Assembly: GCA_046533775.1 (NCBI GenBank)
Contig: JAWDOO010000013.1
Location: 1 to 12,777, forward strand
DNA: 12,777 nt
Reading direction: 5' to 3'
Origin: Candidatus Nanopusillus sp.
Lineage (GTDB): Archaea; Nanobdellota; Nanobdellia; Nanobdellales; Nanobdellaceae
How positions within the stretch are numbered: the first letter of the stretch is position 1; each line of letters begins with the position of its first letter. Positions 420-12,777 of this stretch are shown here, one piece after another. Position numbers and translations under genes: made by a program. The notes under the pieces are model-generated. The model did not search any database. It saw only the letters and a program-made list of their open reading frames with translations, and was not told the origin of the DNA.

Positions 420-812
420 ATGCTAGATAGGTTTTTTGAATTATTTGTAATCATTTTAGTAATATTTTTTATTACTTTATTATTAATGGAAAAAGTCTCT
501 TATATTTATAATATTAATGAAAAATATCAAATTATATATAATCAATTTATGGATGGAAGAGTTTTAATTAAGGAAATTACAGAACAGTATACTAACAATA
601 TTTGTAATTTAACATCAAATAATTTTAATCCAAATATAATGGATAATTTAGCAAGTTTTCCGTATGAAATAATATATGAAAATTTAAGTAATATTAGTCA
701 AGAATATATTTTTAGTAATGATAATATAACAAACATGCAAAATTATATAGAATTTAATAGGGTTTGTTATTATGATGGCTCATTATTTTTAGTTAGTGTA
801 TTGGTTCAATGA
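420..812 (+). CDS. hypothetical small membrane-anchored/secreted protein, pilin-like N-terminus (1 of 3 tandem)
   Basis: ORF track, 130 aa. ATG at 420; TGA at 810-812 overlaps the next ATG (ATGA). N-terminus MLDRFFELFVIILVIFFITLLLM is a short charged leader followed by ~20 hydrophobic residues. The rest is N/Y/I-rich with 4 N-x-S/T sequons (NLT, NLS, NIS, NIT). A 130-codon stop-free frame in DNA this AT-rich is unlikely by chance. No family recognised. Confidence 0.55.
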   Translation: MLDRFFELFVIILVIFFITLLLMEKVSYIYNINEKYQIIYNQFMDGRVLIKEITEQYTNNICNLTSNNFNPNIMDNLASFPYEIIYENLSNISQEYIFSNDNITNMQNYIEFNRVCYYDGSLFLVSVLVQ

Positions 813-1153
813 GATCATTTAGTATATCAATATTTATTGAATTGATAGTTGTAATAATTGTTTTATATTTTATTTTAACTTCAACATATTATAGTAATTT
901 TTATATTAGAGGATATAATAAAGAAGATCTATATGCATCATTAATATCAATAAATTATATGGATCTAAATAATACACAACAACTAAACAATAGTTTGTAT
1001 CAAATTGTTACAAATATTTTACCATATTATTATGTTGAAATAAATGGACAGGTTGTATTTAATAATATAAATTTAAATGAAGCTGAGCAAGGAATTGAAA
1101 CATTTTATATTATTAATGGCTCAATAGATTATGTAAATATATATTGGGAATGA
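809..1153 (+). CDS. hypothetical small membrane-anchored/secreted protein, pilin-like N-terminus (2 of 3 tandem)
   Basis: ORF track, 114 aa. ATG at 809 sits in an ATGA overlap with the upstream stop. N-terminus MRSFSISIFIELIVVIIVLYFIL has R-S followed by a long hydrophobic helix containing a Glu. Three sequons (NNT, NNS, NGS). Stop TGA 1151-1153 overlaps the next ATG. Confidence 0.6.
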   Translation: MRSFSISIFIELIVVIIVLYFILTSTYYSNFYIRGYNKEDLYASLISINYMDLNNTQQLNNSLYQIVTNILPYYYVEINGQVVFNNINLNEAEQGIETFYIINGSIDYVNIYWE

Positions 1154-1428
1154 GATCCCAATTTATTCTATTATATTTAATTTTAATATTATTTATTACA
1201 TTATACTTTATTTCAAATTTGCAAAATAATTTCTATTATCAACCAAATATTGGTGAATATATTGCAGAAGATTTTTATGTTAAATTATTATTATATCCAA
1301 ATTATTCTTCCATTATAAATCAAACATATTATAATATCTGTTTAGAAGAGAATATAACGTGTTATGATAATGGAACAAATATAATAGTTATAACCCAAAA
1401 TTCTGAATATATATTAAATAACCCATAG
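1150..1428 (+). CDS. hypothetical small membrane-anchored/secreted protein, pilin-like N-terminus (3 of 3 tandem)
   Basis: The track starts at TTG 1144 (MGMRS...). I prefer ATG 1150, which reproduces the same AATGAGATC stop/start junction and the same MRS- start as the upstream gene: MRSQFILLYLILILFITLYFISN... Four sequons (NYS, NQT, NIT, NGT). The TAG stop at 1426-1428 shares its G with tRNA position 1. Confidence 0.55.
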   Translation: MRSQFILLYLILILFITLYFISNLQNNFYYQPNIGEYIAEDFYVKLLLYPNYSSIINQTYYNICLEENITCYDNGTNIIVITQNSEYILNNP

Positions 1429-6801: not shown

Positions 6802-7359
6802 ATGGCGAAGAGACCCTGGAGAATATTCAAAGAAATTGAAAGACCTTATACAAGATTTTCATATAGTAAATCATATAATAAAATCCCAGGTGCTCCAGTA
6901 TCAAAGTTAAGAATGCAAATTATGGGAATGATGAATGTACCGAAAGATCAATGGAAATATGTTGGACATTTAATTGCATTACATAATGTTCAAGTATCAG
7001 ATTATTCTTTAGAATCTGTAAGAACAAACATATTAAAATACTTAGAAAATGAAGTAAAAGAATTCTTATTTATTGTAAGAAAATATCCCCATCATGTTGT
7101 AAGAGAACATGCATTAGTATATGGTGCGGGTGCAGATAGAATTTCACAAGGAATGAGGCATGCATTTGGAAGACCTTATACAAGAGCTGCGCAAGTATAC
7201 TATAAAGATATTGTTTTATCAATATATTATAATAAACAAGAATTTACAAATAGGATAAGTTTTTATTTAGATGTAGCAAGAAAAAAGTTAGCAGGAAAAT
7301 ATAAGAAATATATAGGGGAAAACAAACCAGAGGAAATTATTTTATCATCTGTTGTCTAG
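6802..7359 (+). CDS. rpl10e: 50S ribosomal protein uL16 (L10e type)
   Basis: 185 aa. RPYTR.SY.......PG.P.SK...F.MG start; central RKYPHHVVREHALVYGAGADRISQGMRHAFGRPYTRAAQV matches the L10e signature (hPhhVlReNkm...AGADRl..GMr.afGkp.g.aArV). The last 23 nt overlap the convergent VWA gene. Confidence 0.93.
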   Translation: MAKRPWRIFKEIERPYTRFSYSKSYNKIPGAPVSKLRMQIMGMMNVPKDQWKYVGHLIALHNVQVSDYSLESVRTNILKYLENEVKEFLFIVRKYPHHVVREHALVYGAGADRISQGMRHAFGRPYTRAAQVYYKDIVLSIYYNKQEFTNRISFYLDVARKKLAGKYKKYIGENKPEEIILSSVV

Positions 7360-8431
7360 ATATTTCGTATTCCAATAATAATAGCTTTTTCAAATCTTTT
7401 ATATCCTTAGAGATAAATAATCTTCCCCTTCCATATTTTACTATTTCTTTTGCAATTTTTTCTCCTTCATTATTTAATTGTATTCCAATTATAGATATAT
7501 AATAATATTGACTTAATTCTCTAGCTAACCTTAAAGTTCTTTCTACAGGATCTTTTCCTTTTGTTGGTAATGCATCTGTTATTAATATTACATGCCCATT
7601 TTCACCTTTATTTAATAAATAATTAAATACTAAAGCAATATCTGTACTTCCATTTGGTATAATTTTTAATATATCTATTATATCTTTTAATCCTCTAACA
7701 TTATTATATTCTTTAATAATCTTATCATTAAATAATATTATATCTAATAGGTTATTATCTTCTAATATCTTTGATGTTAATAATATTAAAGCCTTTTTTG
7801 CTTCAAATATTTTTTCTCCAATCATACTTCCAGATACATCTAATAGAATTATATATTTACCACCCTTATTTTCTCTATTAACATTAACAATAAATCTTAC
7901 AAAATCTTTATTCTTTATATATTTTCTTATTGTTTCTTTTATATCAATTTTATTATATTTATCCCCTATACTAAAATATTTTTTATAAAATTCTTCATCA
8001 TCTCCAATATAATATGAAAAATATTTTCCATATTCAAATATTCCTTCAATTTCCTTTTCTATATTTCCTATTAAATATTTAGAATATTCTATTAAAGATT
8101 TTTCAGTCAGTTCTCCATTTTCATCTATATATCCTTCACTAGTTAATATTTCCTTTATTTTATTTAAAGATTTCCTAAATTCTTTATTAAACCTATAATC
8201 TTTATCCTCCCTTATTCTTTTTTCATCATATTCAGTTAATTTTGATAATATATCTGAATATTCTCTTTTATTTTCCATAATTTTATCTATATCAAATATT
8301 GGATATCCTTCTTTTATCATTTTTTCAATTAATTCATTTATATTTTTCTCAATATCTTTTGAACTATATTTAAAGGATTCTCCCTGTCTATTTATTAAAT
8401 TTTCTGAGTCAACTCCGAAAGTCCTTTCCAA
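7337..8431 (-). CDS. von Willebrand factor type A (VWA) domain protein, ChlD/BchD C-terminal-like partner of the upstream AAA+ ATPase
   Basis: 364 aa. The C-terminal half has KYIILLDVSGSMIGEKIFEAKKAL, a MIDAS DxSxS motif, followed by ...NGSTDIALVF...HVILITDALPTKG (MIDAS T and D). The N-terminal ~190 aa are acidic/helical and unassigned. The track start is TTG at 8431, overlapping the ATPase gene by 23 nt. The first in-frame ATG is 37 codons downstream (about 8320), so the start is uncertain. Confidence 0.85.
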   Translation of the reverse strand: MERTFGVDSENLINRQGESFKYSSKDIEKNINELIEKMIKEGYPIFDIDKIMENKREYSDILSKLTEYDEKRIREDKDYRFNKEFRKSLNKIKEILTSEGYIDENGELTEKSLIEYSKYLIGNIEKEIEGIFEYGKYFSYYIGDDEEFYKKYFSIGDKYNKIDIKETIRKYIKNKDFVRFIVNVNRENKGGKYIILLDVSGSMIGEKIFEAKKALILLTSKILEDNNLLDIILFNDKIIKEYNNVRGLKDIIDILKIIPNGSTDIALVFNYLLNKGENGHVILITDALPTKGKDPVERTLRLARELSQYYYISIIGIQLNNEGEKIAKEIVKYGRGRLFISKDIKDLKKLLLLEYEISRQQMIK

Positions 8432-9449
8432 TTATAAAAGAATTCCATTGATTTTTTATATATTCCTCTTCATTTATTTCCATTTTATATGATGGTTTTA
8501 ATCTTATTCTATGTGGTAATATTGATAATAAAGACTCAAATATATGTTGAATTTCAACATTTTCTTTCTTATCTATTATCGCCAAAGCTTGTGCTTTTTC
8601 ATAAATACCAATTGTAGATCTAACTGATGGTTTCTTTTCTAATTTATCATCTTTTCTTAATTTTTGTATAAATTCAATTGTCAATTCCAATAATTTTTCA
8701 GGAAAATTAACATCTAAACTTTTCCCATATTTTAATATAATCTTCTTTTCTTCTTCAATATCTTTTGGATAATCTAAATTTATTATATCAAATCTATCCA
8801 ATAATACATCAGATATTTTTTCAGTTCCATAATAATTTTCAGGATTCATTGTAGCAATAAATATTATATCTAATGGTATTTGAAATTCATATGTTCCAAT
8901 TGTTATTTTCTTTTCTTCTAATAATTCTAATAAACTATTTTGAACCTTTGGAGGTGCTCTATTTATCTCATCAAAAAACAATACACCATGATGTGCTCTA
9001 AATACTTTTCCAGGTATAAAAGATTCTAAAGAATGTATTCCATATTTTAATGCTTTTGAAGGATCGATATCTCCAATTAAATCTTCTACTGATAGATCGT
9101 AAGAACCTTGTATTCTAATAAATCTATCTTCTCCTTTTATTTTTATAAAGGGACCTTCTTTCCATTTTTTTCTATATTCTTCAGGGACAAATGGGAATTC
9201 TTCATATGCCCACAAAGGGATACCATCTGGAAAATCAATTTCAGGTAAAAGTTTTGCTATATTTTTTGCTAGAGTTGTTTTTCCAGTACCAGGAGGTCCT
9301 ATTATTAATATATTTCTCCCAGAAATTAATGAAGATAATATTTGTCTCTTTGCATTTTCTTGTCCGATTATAGAATCAAATGGATCTTTTCCTTCCTTAA
9401 TATAATTATTAATTATTATATCCTTTATCTGTTCTCTTATTTTGATCAT
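8409..9449 (-). CDS. AAA+ ATPase, Mg-chelatase subunit I (ChlI/BchI)-like / MoxR-class
   Basis: 346 aa. IIGQENAKRQILSSL; Walker A ILIIGPPGTGKTTLAK; then RIQGSYDLSVEDLIGDIDPSKALKYGIHSLESFIPGKVFRAHHGVLFFDEINRAPPKVQNSLLELLEE (Walker B hhhhDE plus sensor region). This is collinear with the ChlI/BchI pattern (LP.gatEDr..G.iD.ekAl..G...fePGlLa.AnrGiLyvDEvN). ATMNPE and LLDRFD motifs are present. Confidence 0.85.
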   Translation of the reverse strand: MIKIREQIKDIIINNYIKEGKDPFDSIIGQENAKRQILSSLISGRNILIIGPPGTGKTTLAKNIAKLLPEIDFPDGIPLWAYEEFPFVPEEYRKKWKEGPFIKIKGEDRFIRIQGSYDLSVEDLIGDIDPSKALKYGIHSLESFIPGKVFRAHHGVLFFDEINRAPPKVQNSLLELLEEKKITIGTYEFQIPLDIIFIATMNPENYYGTEKISDVLLDRFDIINLDYPKDIEEEKKIILKYGKSLDVNFPEKLLELTIEFIQKLRKDDKLEKKPSVRSTIGIYEKAQALAIIDKKENVEIQHIFESLLSILPHRIRLKPSYKMEINEEEYIKNQWNSFIIGKDFRS

Positions 9450-10177: not shown

Positions 10178-10357
10178 AATAATTAATAATATAATTGATA
10201 GTTGGTAAGAATTTGATATTAATATTGGTATTGGACCTATCAATATCAATCCAGCAAATTTTGTATTAGAAGAATTTGATAATGAGTAAATAAATAATAA
10301 AATAATTGAAATAAATAGGAAAATAATTGATAAAATCAAAAATATATTATTATTCAT
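10121..10357 (-). CDS. small two-TM membrane protein, DUF131-like (archaeal conserved hypothetical)
   Basis: 78 aa. TM1 IFLILSIIFLFISIILLFIY; central AGLILIGPIPILISNS; TM2 LSIILLIILLIIILIILIIFF. The G..(L/I)IGPIPI motif between two TM helices is what I remember for the archaeal DUF131/TIGR00304 family (from memory, unverified). The ATG overlaps the upstream Dph2-fragment stop by 8 nt. The 3' end overlaps the convergent HAD gene by 57 nt. Confidence 0.55.
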   Translation of the reverse strand: MNNNIFLILSIIFLFISIILLFIYSLSNSSNTKFAGLILIGPIPILISNSYQLSIILLIILLIIILIILIIFFYKVII

Positions 10358-10622
10358 TTAAATTTAATTTATAAAATTTTGAATGGCCAAAATGAATTAT
10401 TAAATCAAATCCATATTTATCTAAATATATTGGTATATCACATCCACCAAAATCAGATCCAAACCAAATATATATTTCAATATCTTTATATTTTTCCTTT
10501 ATTTTATCATATATTTCTTTTGAATATGGTTTTAGTCCATCGGGAAATTGTAATAATATTTTTTTGTATTTCTTTTTATCCAAAATCTCAAATATTTTAT
10601 CTAATTCAAAATCTATTTCCAT
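10350..10622 (-). CDS. dph2: N-terminal fragment (90 aa) of diphthamide synthesis protein Dph2 (radical-SAM 2-(3-amino-3-carboxypropyl)histidine synthase): split gene or truncated remnant
   Basis: MEIDFELDKIFEILDKKKYKKILLQFPDGLKPYSKEIYDKIKEKYKDIEIYIWFGSDFGGCDIPIYLDKYGFDLIIHFGHSKFYKLNLNE. This matches the start of archaeal Dph2 (..v.lQ.PeGL...a.......e......v...G...YGaCD.......g.D.liHyGHs). Full-length archaeal Dph2 is about 330-350 aa. Here a stop follows about 10 residues after the GHS motif, and the next gene (unrelated) starts 8 nt before that stop. Confidence 0.7.
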   Translation of the reverse strand: MEIDFELDKIFEILDKKKYKKILLQFPDGLKPYSKEIYDKIKEKYKDIEIYIWFGSDFGGCDIPIYLDKYGFDLIIHFGHSKFYKLNLNE

Positions 10623-11368
10623 TTAAATATTTTTAATATATTATCTATAAAGCTATTCCTAACCTCCAATTCTTTTCCAGTTATTTTTTCTGCAATTTTT
10701 ATTATATCTCTAGAAGCTATAGAATTTATATTATAATCTATTAAAGGTATACCTTTATTCATTGAAATTTGTACATTTTCATCATAATGAATTATCCCTA
10801 TTATTTTCTTTTTAAAAAATTTTTCAGCGTTTATATAATTTATATCCTTCTTTATTTTATTTAAAACAATTCCAAGAGTTTTTATATCTAAGTTATCTAA
10901 TACTTTTGTAACTCTATAAGCATCAAACATTGCAGATTTTTCATAGTTTGTTATAATTATAACTTCTTCAGCAGCTTTTAGTGCTTCTAAAGCTTCCTTA
11001 CCAATTCCAGCAGCAGAATCTATAATAATATAATCAAAATCATCATATATCTTCATTATTCCATTATGTAATTTTTCCGTGGAAATATATATTAAATCTT
11101 TTATATCTAAACTTCCAGGAATTATATAAAGATTTTCTTTATATTCCTTTATACAAAAATTTATGTCAATTTCTCCCCTTAGAAATTTATGTATATTATT
11201 ATTTTCATTACCTAATCCTAGATTTATTGATACATTTGGTGTACTTAGATTAAAATCAATTAATAATGTTCTAAAATTTAATAATGAGAGAGCTCTTGAT
11301 AAATTTATAGAAAAGAAAGTTTTTCCTACTCCACCTTTTCCAGAAGATATTGTATATACTTTTGCCAT
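10613..11368 (-). CDS. minD: MinD/ParA-superfamily P-loop ATPase (archaeal MinD-like)
   Basis: 251 aa. Deviant Walker A ISSGKGGVGKTFFSINLS with the signature Lys; LLIDFNL (switch I/Walker A'); IIIDSAAGIG (Walker B). C-terminal NSFIDNILKIFKWK looks amphipathic. The ATG shares 1 nt with the upstream stop, and the 3' end overlaps the Dph2-fragment ATG by 10 nt. Confidence 0.9.
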   Translation of the reverse strand: MAKVYTISSGKGGVGKTFFSINLSRALSLLNFRTLLIDFNLSTPNVSINLGLGNENNNIHKFLRGEIDINFCIKEYKENLYIIPGSLDIKDLIYISTEKLHNGIMKIYDDFDYIIIDSAAGIGKEALEALKAAEEVIIITNYEKSAMFDAYRVTKVLDNLDIKTLGIVLNKIKKDINYINAEKFFKKKIIGIIHYDENVQISMNKGIPLIDYNINSIASRDIIKIAEKITGKELEVRNSFIDNILKIFKWK

Positions 11369-11820
11369 TATATATATTTATTAATAATTGTAGAAAATTT
11401 TTTAACTGATTCTGCAATATCTTTTAATGTTTTTATATTTATTTCAAATTCTTCTCCACTCAATGTCCTAAATTTTACAACCATATTTTTTCTATATTCA
11501 TTTATTATCCTTGCATCGGAATTTAAAGCAAGCTTTAATAGTTTATAATATTTTAATGATTCTTCAAGTTCTTTATCTTTTGTAATTTCAATTATTTTTT
11601 TATATCTTTTAATTGGACTATCTGGAATTTCATCAATCTTTTTATTTTCATATAATTTCCTAAAATATAATTCAATTGCATAATCATAATATTCAATAAC
11701 TGCCTTTATAAAGCTTCTAACAGTTTCCAATCCCTTATTATTTTTCAATGAAACATTAAATATATGTAAAACCTCCTTATATCTTCTATTGTATTCTAAA
11801 TCTTCTTCTAAATTAGGCAT
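11368..11820 (-). CDS. hypothetical protein (150 aa, mostly helical, charged), translationally coupled to the MinD-like ATPase
   Basis: ORF track: MPNLEEDLEYNRRYKEVLHIFNVSLKNNKGLETVRSFIKAVIEYYDYAIELYFRKLYENKKIDEIPDSPIKRYKK...NMVVKFRTLSGEEFEINIKTLKDIAESVKKFSTIINKYI. No family recognised. The long stop-free frame in AT-rich DNA and the 1-nt overlap with minD support a real gene. Confidence 0.7.
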   Translation of the reverse strand: MPNLEEDLEYNRRYKEVLHIFNVSLKNNKGLETVRSFIKAVIEYYDYAIELYFRKLYENKKIDEIPDSPIKRYKKIIEITKDKELEESLKYYKLLKLALNSDARIINEYRKNMVVKFRTLSGEEFEINIKTLKDIAESVKKFSTIINKYI

Positions 11821-11966
11821 GATATATAGATATTTGCAATGTATACTAAAGCCGCGAAAATAATTATAAATATTATTATTTTATTTCTATTTAATTTTAT
11901 TTTTGATTTTTCCTTTCCAAATTTATATAATCCAAGATATGTAAATATGGGTAATTGGTCTGGCAT
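11808..11966 (-). CDS. possible tiny (52 aa) tail-anchored membrane protein, first ORF of the minus-strand array
   Basis: Found by hand, below the track cutoff. ATG at 11966-11964, TAG at 11810-11808: MPDQLPIFTYLGLYKFGKEKSKIKLNRNKIIIFIIIFAALVYIANIYISCLI. It has a basic middle and a C-terminal hydrophobic helix. It overlaps the next ATG (11820) by 13 nt. A TATA-like box on the minus strand ends 22 nt upstream of the ATG. It is short and compositionally biased, so it may be non-coding leader sequence. Confidence 0.3.
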   Translation of the reverse strand: MPDQLPIFTYLGLYKFGKEKSKIKLNRNKIIIFIIIFAALVYIANIYISCLI

Positions 11967-11968
11967 AA

Positions 11969-11976
11969 TTTATATA
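11969..11976 (+). promoter_or_regulatory. TATA box (TTTATATA) for the structured RNA gene
   Basis: TTTATATA spans -30 to -23 relative to G11999, the first paired base of the RNA terminal helix. This is the canonical archaeal TATA-to-start spacing. TATA-like strings are frequent in this DNA, so support rests on the spacing alone. Confidence 0.45.
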
Positions 11977-11987
11977 TTTATAAGAAA

Positions 11988-11995
11988 TATATAAA
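11988..11995 (-). promoter_or_regulatory. mirror-image TATA box (TTTATATA on the minus strand) for the minus-strand gene array
   Basis: Plus-strand TATATAAA at 11988-11995 is the exact reverse complement of the box at 11969-11976. It ends 22 nt upstream of the minus-strand ATG at 11966, implying a leaderless or near-leaderless transcript. Confidence 0.3.
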
Positions 11996-11998
11996 AAA

Positions 11999-12228
11999 GT
12001 GGCCGTAGGAAGGTCTGCTTACCGATAAGCCACCGAGGAATCGGAGGGGGAAACCCCTGGCTACATAATAAGAAATCACGGACATATATCCAATGAAGAT
12101 GAAGAGTTAATACCTGGAGGTAACTCTGGGTAAACTCGGAGAGGATATATGTACCTTGAGAAATATGTCCTGGCGGTACAAGGCCTATCCGCTTAGAAAA
12201 ATATATACTAAAAGCAGCCTACGGCCAC
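11999..12228 (+). ncRNA. rnpB: GC-rich structured RNA, best interpreted as a reduced RNase P RNA
   Basis: Hand fold. P1: GUGGCCG (11999-12005) / CGGCCAC (12222-12228). Then UAGGA-AGG-U-CUGCUU (12006-12020), which resembles CR-I GAGGAAAGUCCG. P4: AGG[U12014 bulged]CUGCUU pairs with AAGCAG-CCU (12212-12220). P5: ACC (12021-23) / GGU (12175-77). P7: GCCA (12029-32) / UGGC (12171-74). P8: CCGA-GGAA-UCGG (12033-44). P9: GGGG-GAAA-CCCC (12046-57). P10/11: GG..ACAU (12059-66) / AUGUCC (12165-70). P12: long hairpin 12080-12155 with a GUAA apical loop (12120-23) and a K-turn-like CC-AAU-GA / GA-GG internal loop. ACAAGGCC (12178-85) resembles the J5/15 (CR-IV) segment. Flanked by a TATA box at -30..-23 and an oligo-T run after the 3' end. 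An alternative register gives an 11-bp terminal helix (11999-12009/12218-12228) with a bulged AAGGU. Family assignment was not verified with a covariance model. Confidence 0.65.
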
Positions 12229-12229
12229 A

Positions 12230-12777
12230 CTAATAACTTTTTCCTATATATACATAATATTTTGCATCTTTATTACAAAATATACATTTTTTATTTTTTG
12301 CATCTTCAGGTATAATATCAGTTCCTCTTACATCTAGTGAATATTTTTCTTTAATATTTTTTGCACATTCTTCTTCCATACAGAAAGGAACCTTAAATGC
12401 TATATTTTTATCTAAATTATTTTCTAAATCTTTTAAATTATCTATTTTTAATATTTTATTTTCAAAATATTTTTTTGCCCTTTCTTTTAGATCTTTATCA
12501 TATTCAATAATTAATCTATTTAATTCATTTAATAAATTTTCCAATTTTACTTCATAATCTTTTGCTTTATTATTATATTGCCTTACAGATATTGTAACTG
12601 TATTTTTTTCTAATTCTCTTTTACCAATAGATATTCTAAATGGAACTCCTATTAATTCATATTGGTTAAATTTCCATCCAGGACTCTTTGTATCATCTTT
12701 ATCAATTTTTACTCTATATTTTTCCTTTAATAAATTATATACATTTTCACAATATTCTAATATTTTGTTTTTTTCAT
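12230..12777 (-). CDS. proS: prolyl-tRNA synthetase, archaeal/eukaryotic type, C-terminal ~182 aa (5' part beyond the window)
   Basis: The track lists only 12230-12544, starting at an internal TTG. The same frame stays open to the window edge: ...EKNKILEYCENVYNLLKEKYRVKIDKDDTKSPGWKFNQYELIGVPFRISIGKRELEKNTVTISVRQYNNKAKDYEVKLENLLNELN...VPFCMEEECAKNIKEKYSLDVRGTDIIP...KCIFCNKDAKYYVYIGKSY. The motif D.R...SPG.KFN.wEL.GVP.RI..G.R.le..tv belongs to the class IIa anticodon-binding domain. The Cys-containing C-terminal domain ending in ...Y is typical of archaeal-type ProRS. Confidence 0.9.
   Translation of the reverse strand, partial: EKNKILEYCENVYNLLKEKYRVKIDKDDTKSPGWKFNQYELIGVPFRISIGKRELEKNTVTISVRQYNNKAKDYEVKLENLLNELNRLIIEYDKDLKERAKKYFENKILKIDNLKDLENNLDKNIAFKVPFCMEEECAKNIKEKYSLDVRGTDIIPEDAKNKKCIFCNKDAKYYVYIGKSY
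12238..12242 (+). terminator. oligo-T tract 10 nt downstream of the structured RNA (candidate terminator), inside the proS coding region
   Basis: TTTTT at 12238-12242 follows the 3' strand of the terminal helix (...CCUACGGCCAC ACUAAUAAC UUUUU). Specificity is weak in AT-rich DNA. Confidence 0.35.

Follow-up and report, generated by a model that had tools for sequence, protein, structure and literature searches.

Using Infernal, Podar et al. (2013; PMC3655853) found a short RNase P RNA (RPR) in the genome of Candidatus (Ca.) Nanobsidianus stetteri Nst1, for which Samanta et al. (2016; PMC4919917) suggested a remodelled catalytic domain that they linked to the missing protein Pop5. A PNAS paper of 2026 (PMC12974513) reported the helices P3 and P2 to be deleted in the Nanoarchaeales (Nanopusillaceae), drew the Ca. 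N. stetteri RPR without P2 and P3 beside the yeast mitochondrial Rpm1r (SI Fig. S12), and took the Nanopusillaceae as an argument for assigning P4 to secondary and P2 to tertiary structure. The subject of the present analysis is the 230-nucleotide (nt) RPR gene, counted from P1 to P1, at positions 11999-12228 of the forward (+) strand of a 12,777-nt stretch of DNA (contig JAWDOO010000013.1; hereafter the window). The window RNA is 97% identical to that of Nst1 (locus L002) and occupies the same locus downstream of the prolyl-tRNA synthetase (ProRS) gene proS; both are regarded as the same gene in strain or species variants. Given this identity, the structural reading presented here agrees with the literature and is already known, the short RPR since 2013 and the P2/P3-less structure since 2026, and the novelty that a first-pass annotation of this DNA had implied for the minimal architecture does not hold. 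The published text describes P3 and the 3' portion of P2 as deleted, whereas in the covariance model (CM) alignment of the window RNA both P2 strands are absent and P15-P17 are represented by an unpaired linker.

The window RNA resembles type A RPRs (RF00373, e.g., Pyrococcus furiosus) in having P1, a P4 with a bulged U, P5, P7-P10 including P8, P10/11, the conserved regions (CR) II and III, a P12 with a double-kink-turn (K-turn)-like motif and the CAAG of J5/15, but it lacks P2, P3, P15 (beyond approximately 2 base pairs, bp), P16, P17, and P6, its P4 is nested instead of forming a pseudoknot, and its 230 nt compare with 288 positions of the model. With type M (Methanocaldococcus jannaschii; PMC6565675) it shares the absence of L15, P16, P17, and a CCA-binding loop as well as L7Ae-type K-turns in P12; type M, however, keeps P2/P3, the platform for Rpp30 and for dimerisation, and a short P15 (PMC6565675), neither of which is found here. 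A P1-P9 contact, as in type M, is plausible for the window RNA. Type M RPRs are not known to have P8, which is present in the window RNA. The type T RPRs of Pyrobaculum and relatives are likewise miniaturised archaeal RNAs with a reduced protein set (PMC4919917), but their reduction is the opposite one: type T trims the specificity domain (S-domain), keeps the full catalytic domain and has lost RPP21, whereas the window RNA combines an intact S-domain with a trimmed catalytic domain, and here the loss of POP5 has been reported. Yeast mitochondrial Rpm1r also lacks P2 and P3 and keeps P1 and P4 (PMC3790967; PMC12974513), but in the mitochondrial RNAs, which rely on a large protein, the specificity domain and most conserved regions are gone as well, whereas the S-domain of the window RNA is complete.

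Identification and source of the RPR gene

The Rfam model RF00373 (RNaseP_arch) matched 11995-12232 (+) end to end (model positions 1-288) with 68.7 bits and an E-value of 4e-19 in E-value mode. Between 11900 and 12330, at E-values up to 10, no match to signal recognition particle (SRP) RNA or another Rfam family was obtained, apart from two chance matches (E of at least 8) that sit mainly in the A/T-rich flanks of the RPR. The gene is defined as follows:

11999-12228 (+): RNase P RNA gene; Rfam RF00373 and nhmmer homologues in 11 genomes (E 2e-71 to 1e-37)

Its G+C content is 46% compared to 24% for the window, and the isolated RPR folds with z = -7.1, none of 200 dinucleotide shuffles folding as well. 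The surrounding genes are archaeal (L19e, L18e/L15, HisRS, S5, L30, L10e, a split Dph2 fragment, a MinD-like ATPase, and the ProRS C-terminus). The ProRS fragment encoded in the window is 93-94% identical to its counterparts in two genomes of Ca. Nanobsidianus stetteri (Nst1 being one of them), 88-92% identical to those of Nanopusillus spp. including the complete N. acidilobi genome, and 65-67% identical to those of two Nanopusillaceae metagenome-assembled genomes (MAGs) and the complete genome YN1. These identities identify the host as a hot-spring nanoarchaeon and relative of Nanoarchaeum equitans. The first-pass annotation had transcribed the GC-rich island correctly, had suspected a nanoarchaeal-type host, and had proposed an Rfam search and a covariation analysis of orthologous loci, and on each of these counts the results reported in this and the following section bear it out.

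The window RNA is a homologue of RNase P RNA. Judged from its sequence, 11999-12228 (+) is very probably the functional RNase P RNA subunit of a Nanopusillaceae nanoarchaeon close to Ca. Nanobsidianus stetteri.

Conservation and covariation

The window and 11 Nanopusillaceae loci (L001-L011), which were recovered via the ProRS fragment, were combined in an alignment of 12 sequences, to which all counts of genomes given below refer. A homologous RNA with 80-97% identity to the window RNA is present in all 11 related loci at the same site, convergent with proS and directly past its stop codon. In the structure model applied to this alignment 98.7% of the cells contain standard pairs and 24 of the 66 pairs have changed on both sides, a compensatory count that was reached by none of 500 shuffles, and pairing amounted to only 29-42% when the register was slid. 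Every helix carries at least one compensatory pair (P1, 2; P4, 2; P5, 1; P7, 3; P8, 1; P9, 2; P10/11, 2; P12, 11), including P1, P4, P7-P10, and P12, for which the first-pass annotation had proposed the test. The single-stranded core motifs are invariant even across genomes that share only 65% identity in ProRS. The RPR is thus under strong purifying selection on its structure and on the catalytic and tRNA-recognition motifs.

RNAalifold independently recovered P1, distal P4, P8, P9, P11, and P12 and differed from the model around P5/P7, where its pairings GCC/GGC and CUGGCGG/CCGCU.AG are disrupted in the divergent genomes at precisely the positions at which P7 co-varies. Further candidates that were rejected are an AGGUCU/AGGCCU helix of the single-sequence minimum free energy (MFE) fold, which breaks in divergent genomes, an 11-bp P1 of the same fold, which borrows a CCU belonging to P4, and a 3-bp mini-P2, alternative pairings of this kind either breaking in divergent genomes or being invariant. 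A metagenome scan for divergent RPR copies, which used CR-I, CAAGG, and J/P4 anchors and excluded the Nanopusillus-type base, returned five loci, all by chance: they are protein-coding or G+C-richer DNA, and three are near-identical copies of one stretch that reads as metK. In other DPANN and Asgard loci fetched through ProRS, proS is without an adjoining RNase P RNA, and a protein search with the ProRS fragment for intermediate relatives such as N. equitans gave no match at E-values up to 1e-20.

Several points weigh against the interpretation as a functional RNase P RNA. With 68.7 bits the window RPR stays below the curated Rfam gathering score of 84 bits and is missed at Rfam default settings; at the curated thresholds the whole window yields only the tRNA-Glu gene at 1428-1502. 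Its core deviates from the consensus at some positions (ACUAAA for ACAGAA, GGAAGGUC for GGAAAGUCC), and the choice between an AGG/CCU pairing in P4 and a 3-bp extension of P1 depends on one substitution plus homology. Catalytic activity, transcript ends, and protein partners are predictions from sequence, and Podar et al. called the RPR partly degraded and could not fold the RNA (PMC3655853). This last observation, the reported lack of Pop5 (PMC4919917), and the score below the Rfam threshold could also be understood if the RNA were, in the reading of Podar et al., a decaying relic on the way to the N. equitans-type loss, perhaps transcribed but without a role in tRNA processing. Such a relic is highly improbable, however, in view of the 24 compensatory pairs, the 98.7% pairing, the invariant core strands, and a promoter conserved across genomes whose ProRS is 65% identical, and because whole helices have been removed cleanly instead of damage being scattered over the molecule. 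The failure to reach the Rfam cut-off is attributed to the deletions. The copies of Nst1 (71 bits) and N. acidilobi (68 bits) are also below the gathering score, so that default annotation would miss all Nanobsidianus/Nanopusillus copies checked (window, Nst1, and N. acidilobi). The three most divergent copies, those of L009, L010, and L011, exceed it (85.6, 86.6, and 85.5 bits) and are tied to the window RNA by nhmmer (E 1e-37 to 1e-43), and membership in RF00373 therefore still holds by homology.

A reduced catalytic domain

The catalytic domain consists of the following elements:

11999-12006 (+): P1 5' strand, GUGGCCGU; pairs with 12221-12228 (8 bp, 100% paired; compensatory UA to CG and CG to UA in L009)
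12007-12010 (+): AGGA linker leading from P1 straight to P4; corresponds in the alignment to conserved J3/4 of CR-I, with neither the P2 5' strand nor P3 present
12011-12020 (+): P4 5' strand, AGG-U-CUGCUU; pairs with 12212-12220 (9 bp, 100% paired)
12021-12023 (+): P5 5' strand, ACC; pairs with GGU at 12175-12177 (compensatory AU to GC in L011)
12178-12183 (+): J5/15-like ACAAGG; aligned to GCAAG of the model, the equivalent of GCAAGG in E. coli M1
12184-12211 (+): A/U-rich single-stranded linker in place of P15-P17 and the P2 3' strand; CCGCUUAG, then AUAUAUACUAAA leading into P4
12212-12220 (+): P4 3' strand, AAGCAGCCU; AAGCAG (12212-17) with CUGCUU (12015-20), CCU (12218-20) with AGG (12011-13)
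12221-12228 (+): P1 3' strand, ACGGCCAC; no spacer after P4

P2, P3, and P15-P17 have been lost as clean whole-helix excisions. The CM alignment deletes model positions 12-34, which correspond to the P2 5' strand and the P3 hairpin, reduces the 41 positions of the P15-P17 interior to 5 nt, and deletes the 6-nt P2 3' strand, and the remainder is collinear (UAGGAAGGUC vs. GAGGAAAGUCC; CAAGG vs. GCAAG; CGCUUAG; ACUAAAAG...CCUAC vs. ACAGAAGG...CUUAC). Of the RF00373 features the window RNA has the closing P1, the bulged-U P4, and the specificity domain but neither P2/P3 nor P15, and the P2/P3-less layout is shared by all 12 genomes. Of P15, no more than an invariant 2-bp GG/CC is left. The linker motif CCGCU.AGAA..AUAUAUAC.AAAAG is likewise invariant, and CAAGG of J5/15 is found in 11 of the 12 genomes, L004 having AAAGG. 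In P4, which changes from CUGCUU/AAGCAG via CCGCUU/AAGCGG to CCACUU/AAGUGG across the genomes, the bulged U12014 is invariant. As the 3' strand of the closing helix follows directly after the P4 3' strand, this helix is topologically P1, and with P2 gone P4 is a nested helix stacked on P1, which leaves the molecule without a pseudoknot. P1, P4, and P5 make up one continuous nested rod with two interruptions, the AGGA linker and the bulged U.

The CCU at 12218-20 could pair either with the AGG of P4 (12011-13) or, extending P1, with AGG at 12007-09. An A-to-C change at 12007 in L009 and the homology to CR-I are the sole data that discriminate between the two, and both favour the P4 pairing; position 12007 varies between A, C, and G opposite an invariant U12220, which leaves the P1 extension unsupported. 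The first-pass annotation had recognised P4 with its single bulged U, the J5/15-like segment, and the absence of P2/P3 and P15-P17, exactly the parts that the RF00373 alignment deletes. Some details require modification: the ends of the island do pair, but as an 8-bp P1 and not in the 11-bp MFE version, and the spacer between P1 and P4 is short as described, but consists of AGGA and not of UAGGA.

Gene boundaries

The RPR is delimited by three features:

11962-11976 (+): predicted archaeal promoter, a B recognition element (BRE)-like GGCATAA and the TATA box TTTATATA (11969-11976; -30 to -23 from G11999)
12230-12777 (-): 3' part of the convergent prolyl-tRNA synthetase gene; Pfam HGTP_anticodon and ProRS-C_1; stop codon at 12230-12232
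12238-12242 (+): T5 run, the likely RPR terminator, within the proS coding sequence of the opposite strand

GGCATAA(T/C)TTATATA is kept upstream of the RPR in 12 genomes, with the variant GGCATAGATTATATA in L009, and the conserved motif GGCATAATTTATATA places the TATA box at -30 to -23, a spacing that points to its use as promoter. The T5 run, which follows P1 in 10 of the 12 genomes and is absent from L010 and L011, would likely end the transcript. Both the TATA box and the oligo-T run had been noted in the first-pass annotation.

These boundaries also bear on the possibility that the RNA is an ordinary type A or type M RPR that obtains P2/P3 from its flanks or from a second RNA piece. The Nanoarchaeota are known for split genes (PMC3655853), but here the probability of such an arrangement is close to nil. 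Only 4 nt separate P1 from P4 on the 5' side and 0 nt on the 3' side, and the flanks are the A/T-rich promoter and the convergent proS stop codon. A single base lies between the end of P1 (12228) and that stop codon, and with the promoter at -30 neither flank could accommodate P2 or P3. Both P2 strands are missing, so that a P3 supplied in trans would be without an anchor, and the boundaries are identical in 12 genomes.

The RPR and proS converge and nearly overlap (12210-12244, both strands). On the minus strand a terminator-like hairpin followed by TTTT is located just past the proS stop codon; it is the reverse complement of P1/P4, and proS transcripts may therefore end antisense to the RPR. 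In the related genomes proS is flanked on its far side, which for the window would lie past its right end, by the 23S rRNA gene (L002:1807-4742, L005:1804-4739, L010:1806-4740, and L011:1807-4738, all on the minus strand), so that RPR, proS, and 23S rRNA form a conserved block.

The specificity domain

The elements of the specificity domain are:

12029-12032 (+): P7 5' strand, GCCA; pairs with UGGC at 12171-12174; three of the four pairs compensatory (ACCA/UGGU, GGCA/UGCC, GUUA/UAAC)
12033-12044 (+): P8 hairpin with GGAA loop
12045-12058 (+): P9 hairpin with GAAA loop; loop invariant
12059-12067 (+): P10/P11 5' strand consisting of GG, a CU bulge, and ACAUA; pairs with 12164-12170 (compensatory ACGC/GCGU, ACAC/GUGU)
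12068-12079 (+): J11/12 with CR-II-like AGAAAU (12071-12076), which is invariant in 12 genomes and aligned to the conserved ACAGAAA block of the model
12080-12155 (+): P12 with proximal stem, double-K-turn-like motif, and distal hairpin; compensatory pairs in two stems
12156-12163 (+): J12/11 with CR-III-like UUGAGAAA; ACCUUGAGAA (12153-62) invariant

This domain is complete and type-A-like, with P8 present, a P7-P10 cruciform, the CR-II/CR-III T-loop motifs, and P12. The cruciform proposed in the first-pass annotation (GCCA/UGGC, two GNRA hairpins, and GG..ACAUA/UAUGU..CC) is contained in the sequence, and its helices co-vary. The L8 loop is of the GNRA type only in the Nanopusillus/Nanobsidianus group and comprises 6 nt in L009-L011. 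A contact between L9 and P1 has been documented in other RPRs (PMC6565675; PMC12974513). In P12, AAU-GA-AGAU-GA (12092-12102) lies opposite GGAGA (12138-12142), and the distal hairpin (12104-12137) is capped by a GUAA loop; AUGAAGAUGAA and the opposing GGAGAG are invariant in 12 genomes. The K-turn read earlier as CC-AAU-GA/GA-GG is present, and the motif as a whole is consistent with the tandem double K-turn known from euryarchaeal RPRs (PMC5499556), with a tentative register for its second turn. The motif would be a candidate binding site for L7Ae.

Proposed function and protein partners

As part of a ribonucleoprotein (RNP) the RPR would cleave 5' leaders from pre-tRNAs. It has kept the parts that would serve the chemistry and the measuring of the tRNA: the bulged-U P4 with the flanking conserved strands AGGAA, CAAGG, and ACUAAA, P1 and P5, and a full type-A-like S-domain with the cruciform, the CR-II/CR-III T-loop module reading the tRNA elbow, and the tandem-K-turn P12 for L7Ae. 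Proteins would compensate for the missing helices. The 3'-CCA would not be recognised, because L15 is absent and the one tRNA gene of the window encodes no CCA. This gene, tRNA-Glu, also has no TATA box placed for leaderless transcription, and in this single case (n = 1) its features fit an L15-less enzyme that is still needed; no tRNA genes were found in L001-L011, so that the leader analysis covers the tRNA-Glu of the window.

Alternatively, a conserved RNA derived from RNase P might have been repurposed for another substrate or as a scaffold, tRNA 5' ends being made otherwise. Elements that in M. jannaschii contact the leader, the CCA end, and Rpp30 (PMC6565675) are gone with P2/P3, P15, and possibly Pop5, and the sister lineage lives without RNase P (PMC3655853). 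Nevertheless, we consider repurposing very unlikely: what has stayed invariant is precisely what binds and cuts tRNA (the tRNA-elbow T-loop module, P4, and J5/15), HARP has been reported absent from DPANN (PMC6380272), and the lack of a TATA box placed for leaderless transcription of the one tRNA-Glu gene points weakly in the same direction.

Pop5, Rpp30, Rpp21, Rpp29, and L7Ae are not encoded in the 12,777 nt of the window. In Nst1, Rpp21, Rpp29, Rpp30, and L7Ae were found, Pop5 was not, and Rpp30 (p30) is divergent (PMC3655853; PMC4919917). The dimer of the M. jannaschii holoenzyme is organised jointly by Rpp30, which is seated on P2-P3, and Pop5, which grips CR-IV (PMC6565675). The losses of the Rpp30 platform from the RNA and of Pop5 from the proteome would fit together. 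The RPR is strongly selected and the RNA elements contacted by Rpp30 are gone; on this basis it might, as a tentative suggestion that we do not hold to be the probable one, represent the core of a Pop5-less RNase P without Rpp30-P2/P3 contacts, naturally monomeric and pseudoknot-free, and an intermediate before the total loss in N. equitans.

Other genes in the window

A 150-amino-acid (aa) open reading frame (ORF) at 11368-11820 (-), without a Pfam match, overlaps the gene of a MinD/ParA-like ATPase (10613-11368, -) by one base. Each of the 11 Nanopusillaceae loci has this pair, as does a distant Nanobdellota MAG (L020:3337-4489) without an RPR nearby; the ORF product is therefore probably a partner of MinD and not an RNase P protein, and its candidacy for the missing Pop5 was rejected. 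An exact-protein look-up of the 150-aa sequence returned no record. A 90-aa ORF (10350-10622, -) matches only the first 58 of the 302 positions of the Dph2 (diphthamide synthase) profile, which agrees with the listing of Podar et al. (PMC3655853), in which Dph2 of Nst1 appears as a split gene.

Three successive ORFs of 130, 114, and 94 aa at 420-1428 (+) each have a hydrophobic N-terminal segment and no family match, and could code for secreted proteins resembling pilins or archaellins; in the third (94 aa) the stop codon overlaps the first base of tRNA-Glu. The very small genome also carries, at 7337-9449 (-), a typical chaperone pair of the MoxR-VWA kind, in which a MoxR-type AAA+ ATPase (346 aa) precedes a VWA-domain protein (364 aa). 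A 67-aa ORF (1619-1822, -) in a locally G+C-richer stretch gave weak winged-helix-like matches only (E 0.003 or worse).

Implications

The present analysis adds to the published record covariation support from 12 genomes, exact coordinates, the promoter, the reduction of P15-P17 to a conserved unpaired linker, and the note that the Nanobsidianus/Nanopusillus copies checked score below the Rfam gathering threshold. As this RNA shows, a cellular RPR can dispense with P2, P3, and P15-P17 altogether, with P4 and the specificity domain remaining under strict selection. This bears on the minimal catalytic core of RNase P and on the loss of the enzyme in the sister lineage N. equitans, both of which are points already in print (2013, 2026).

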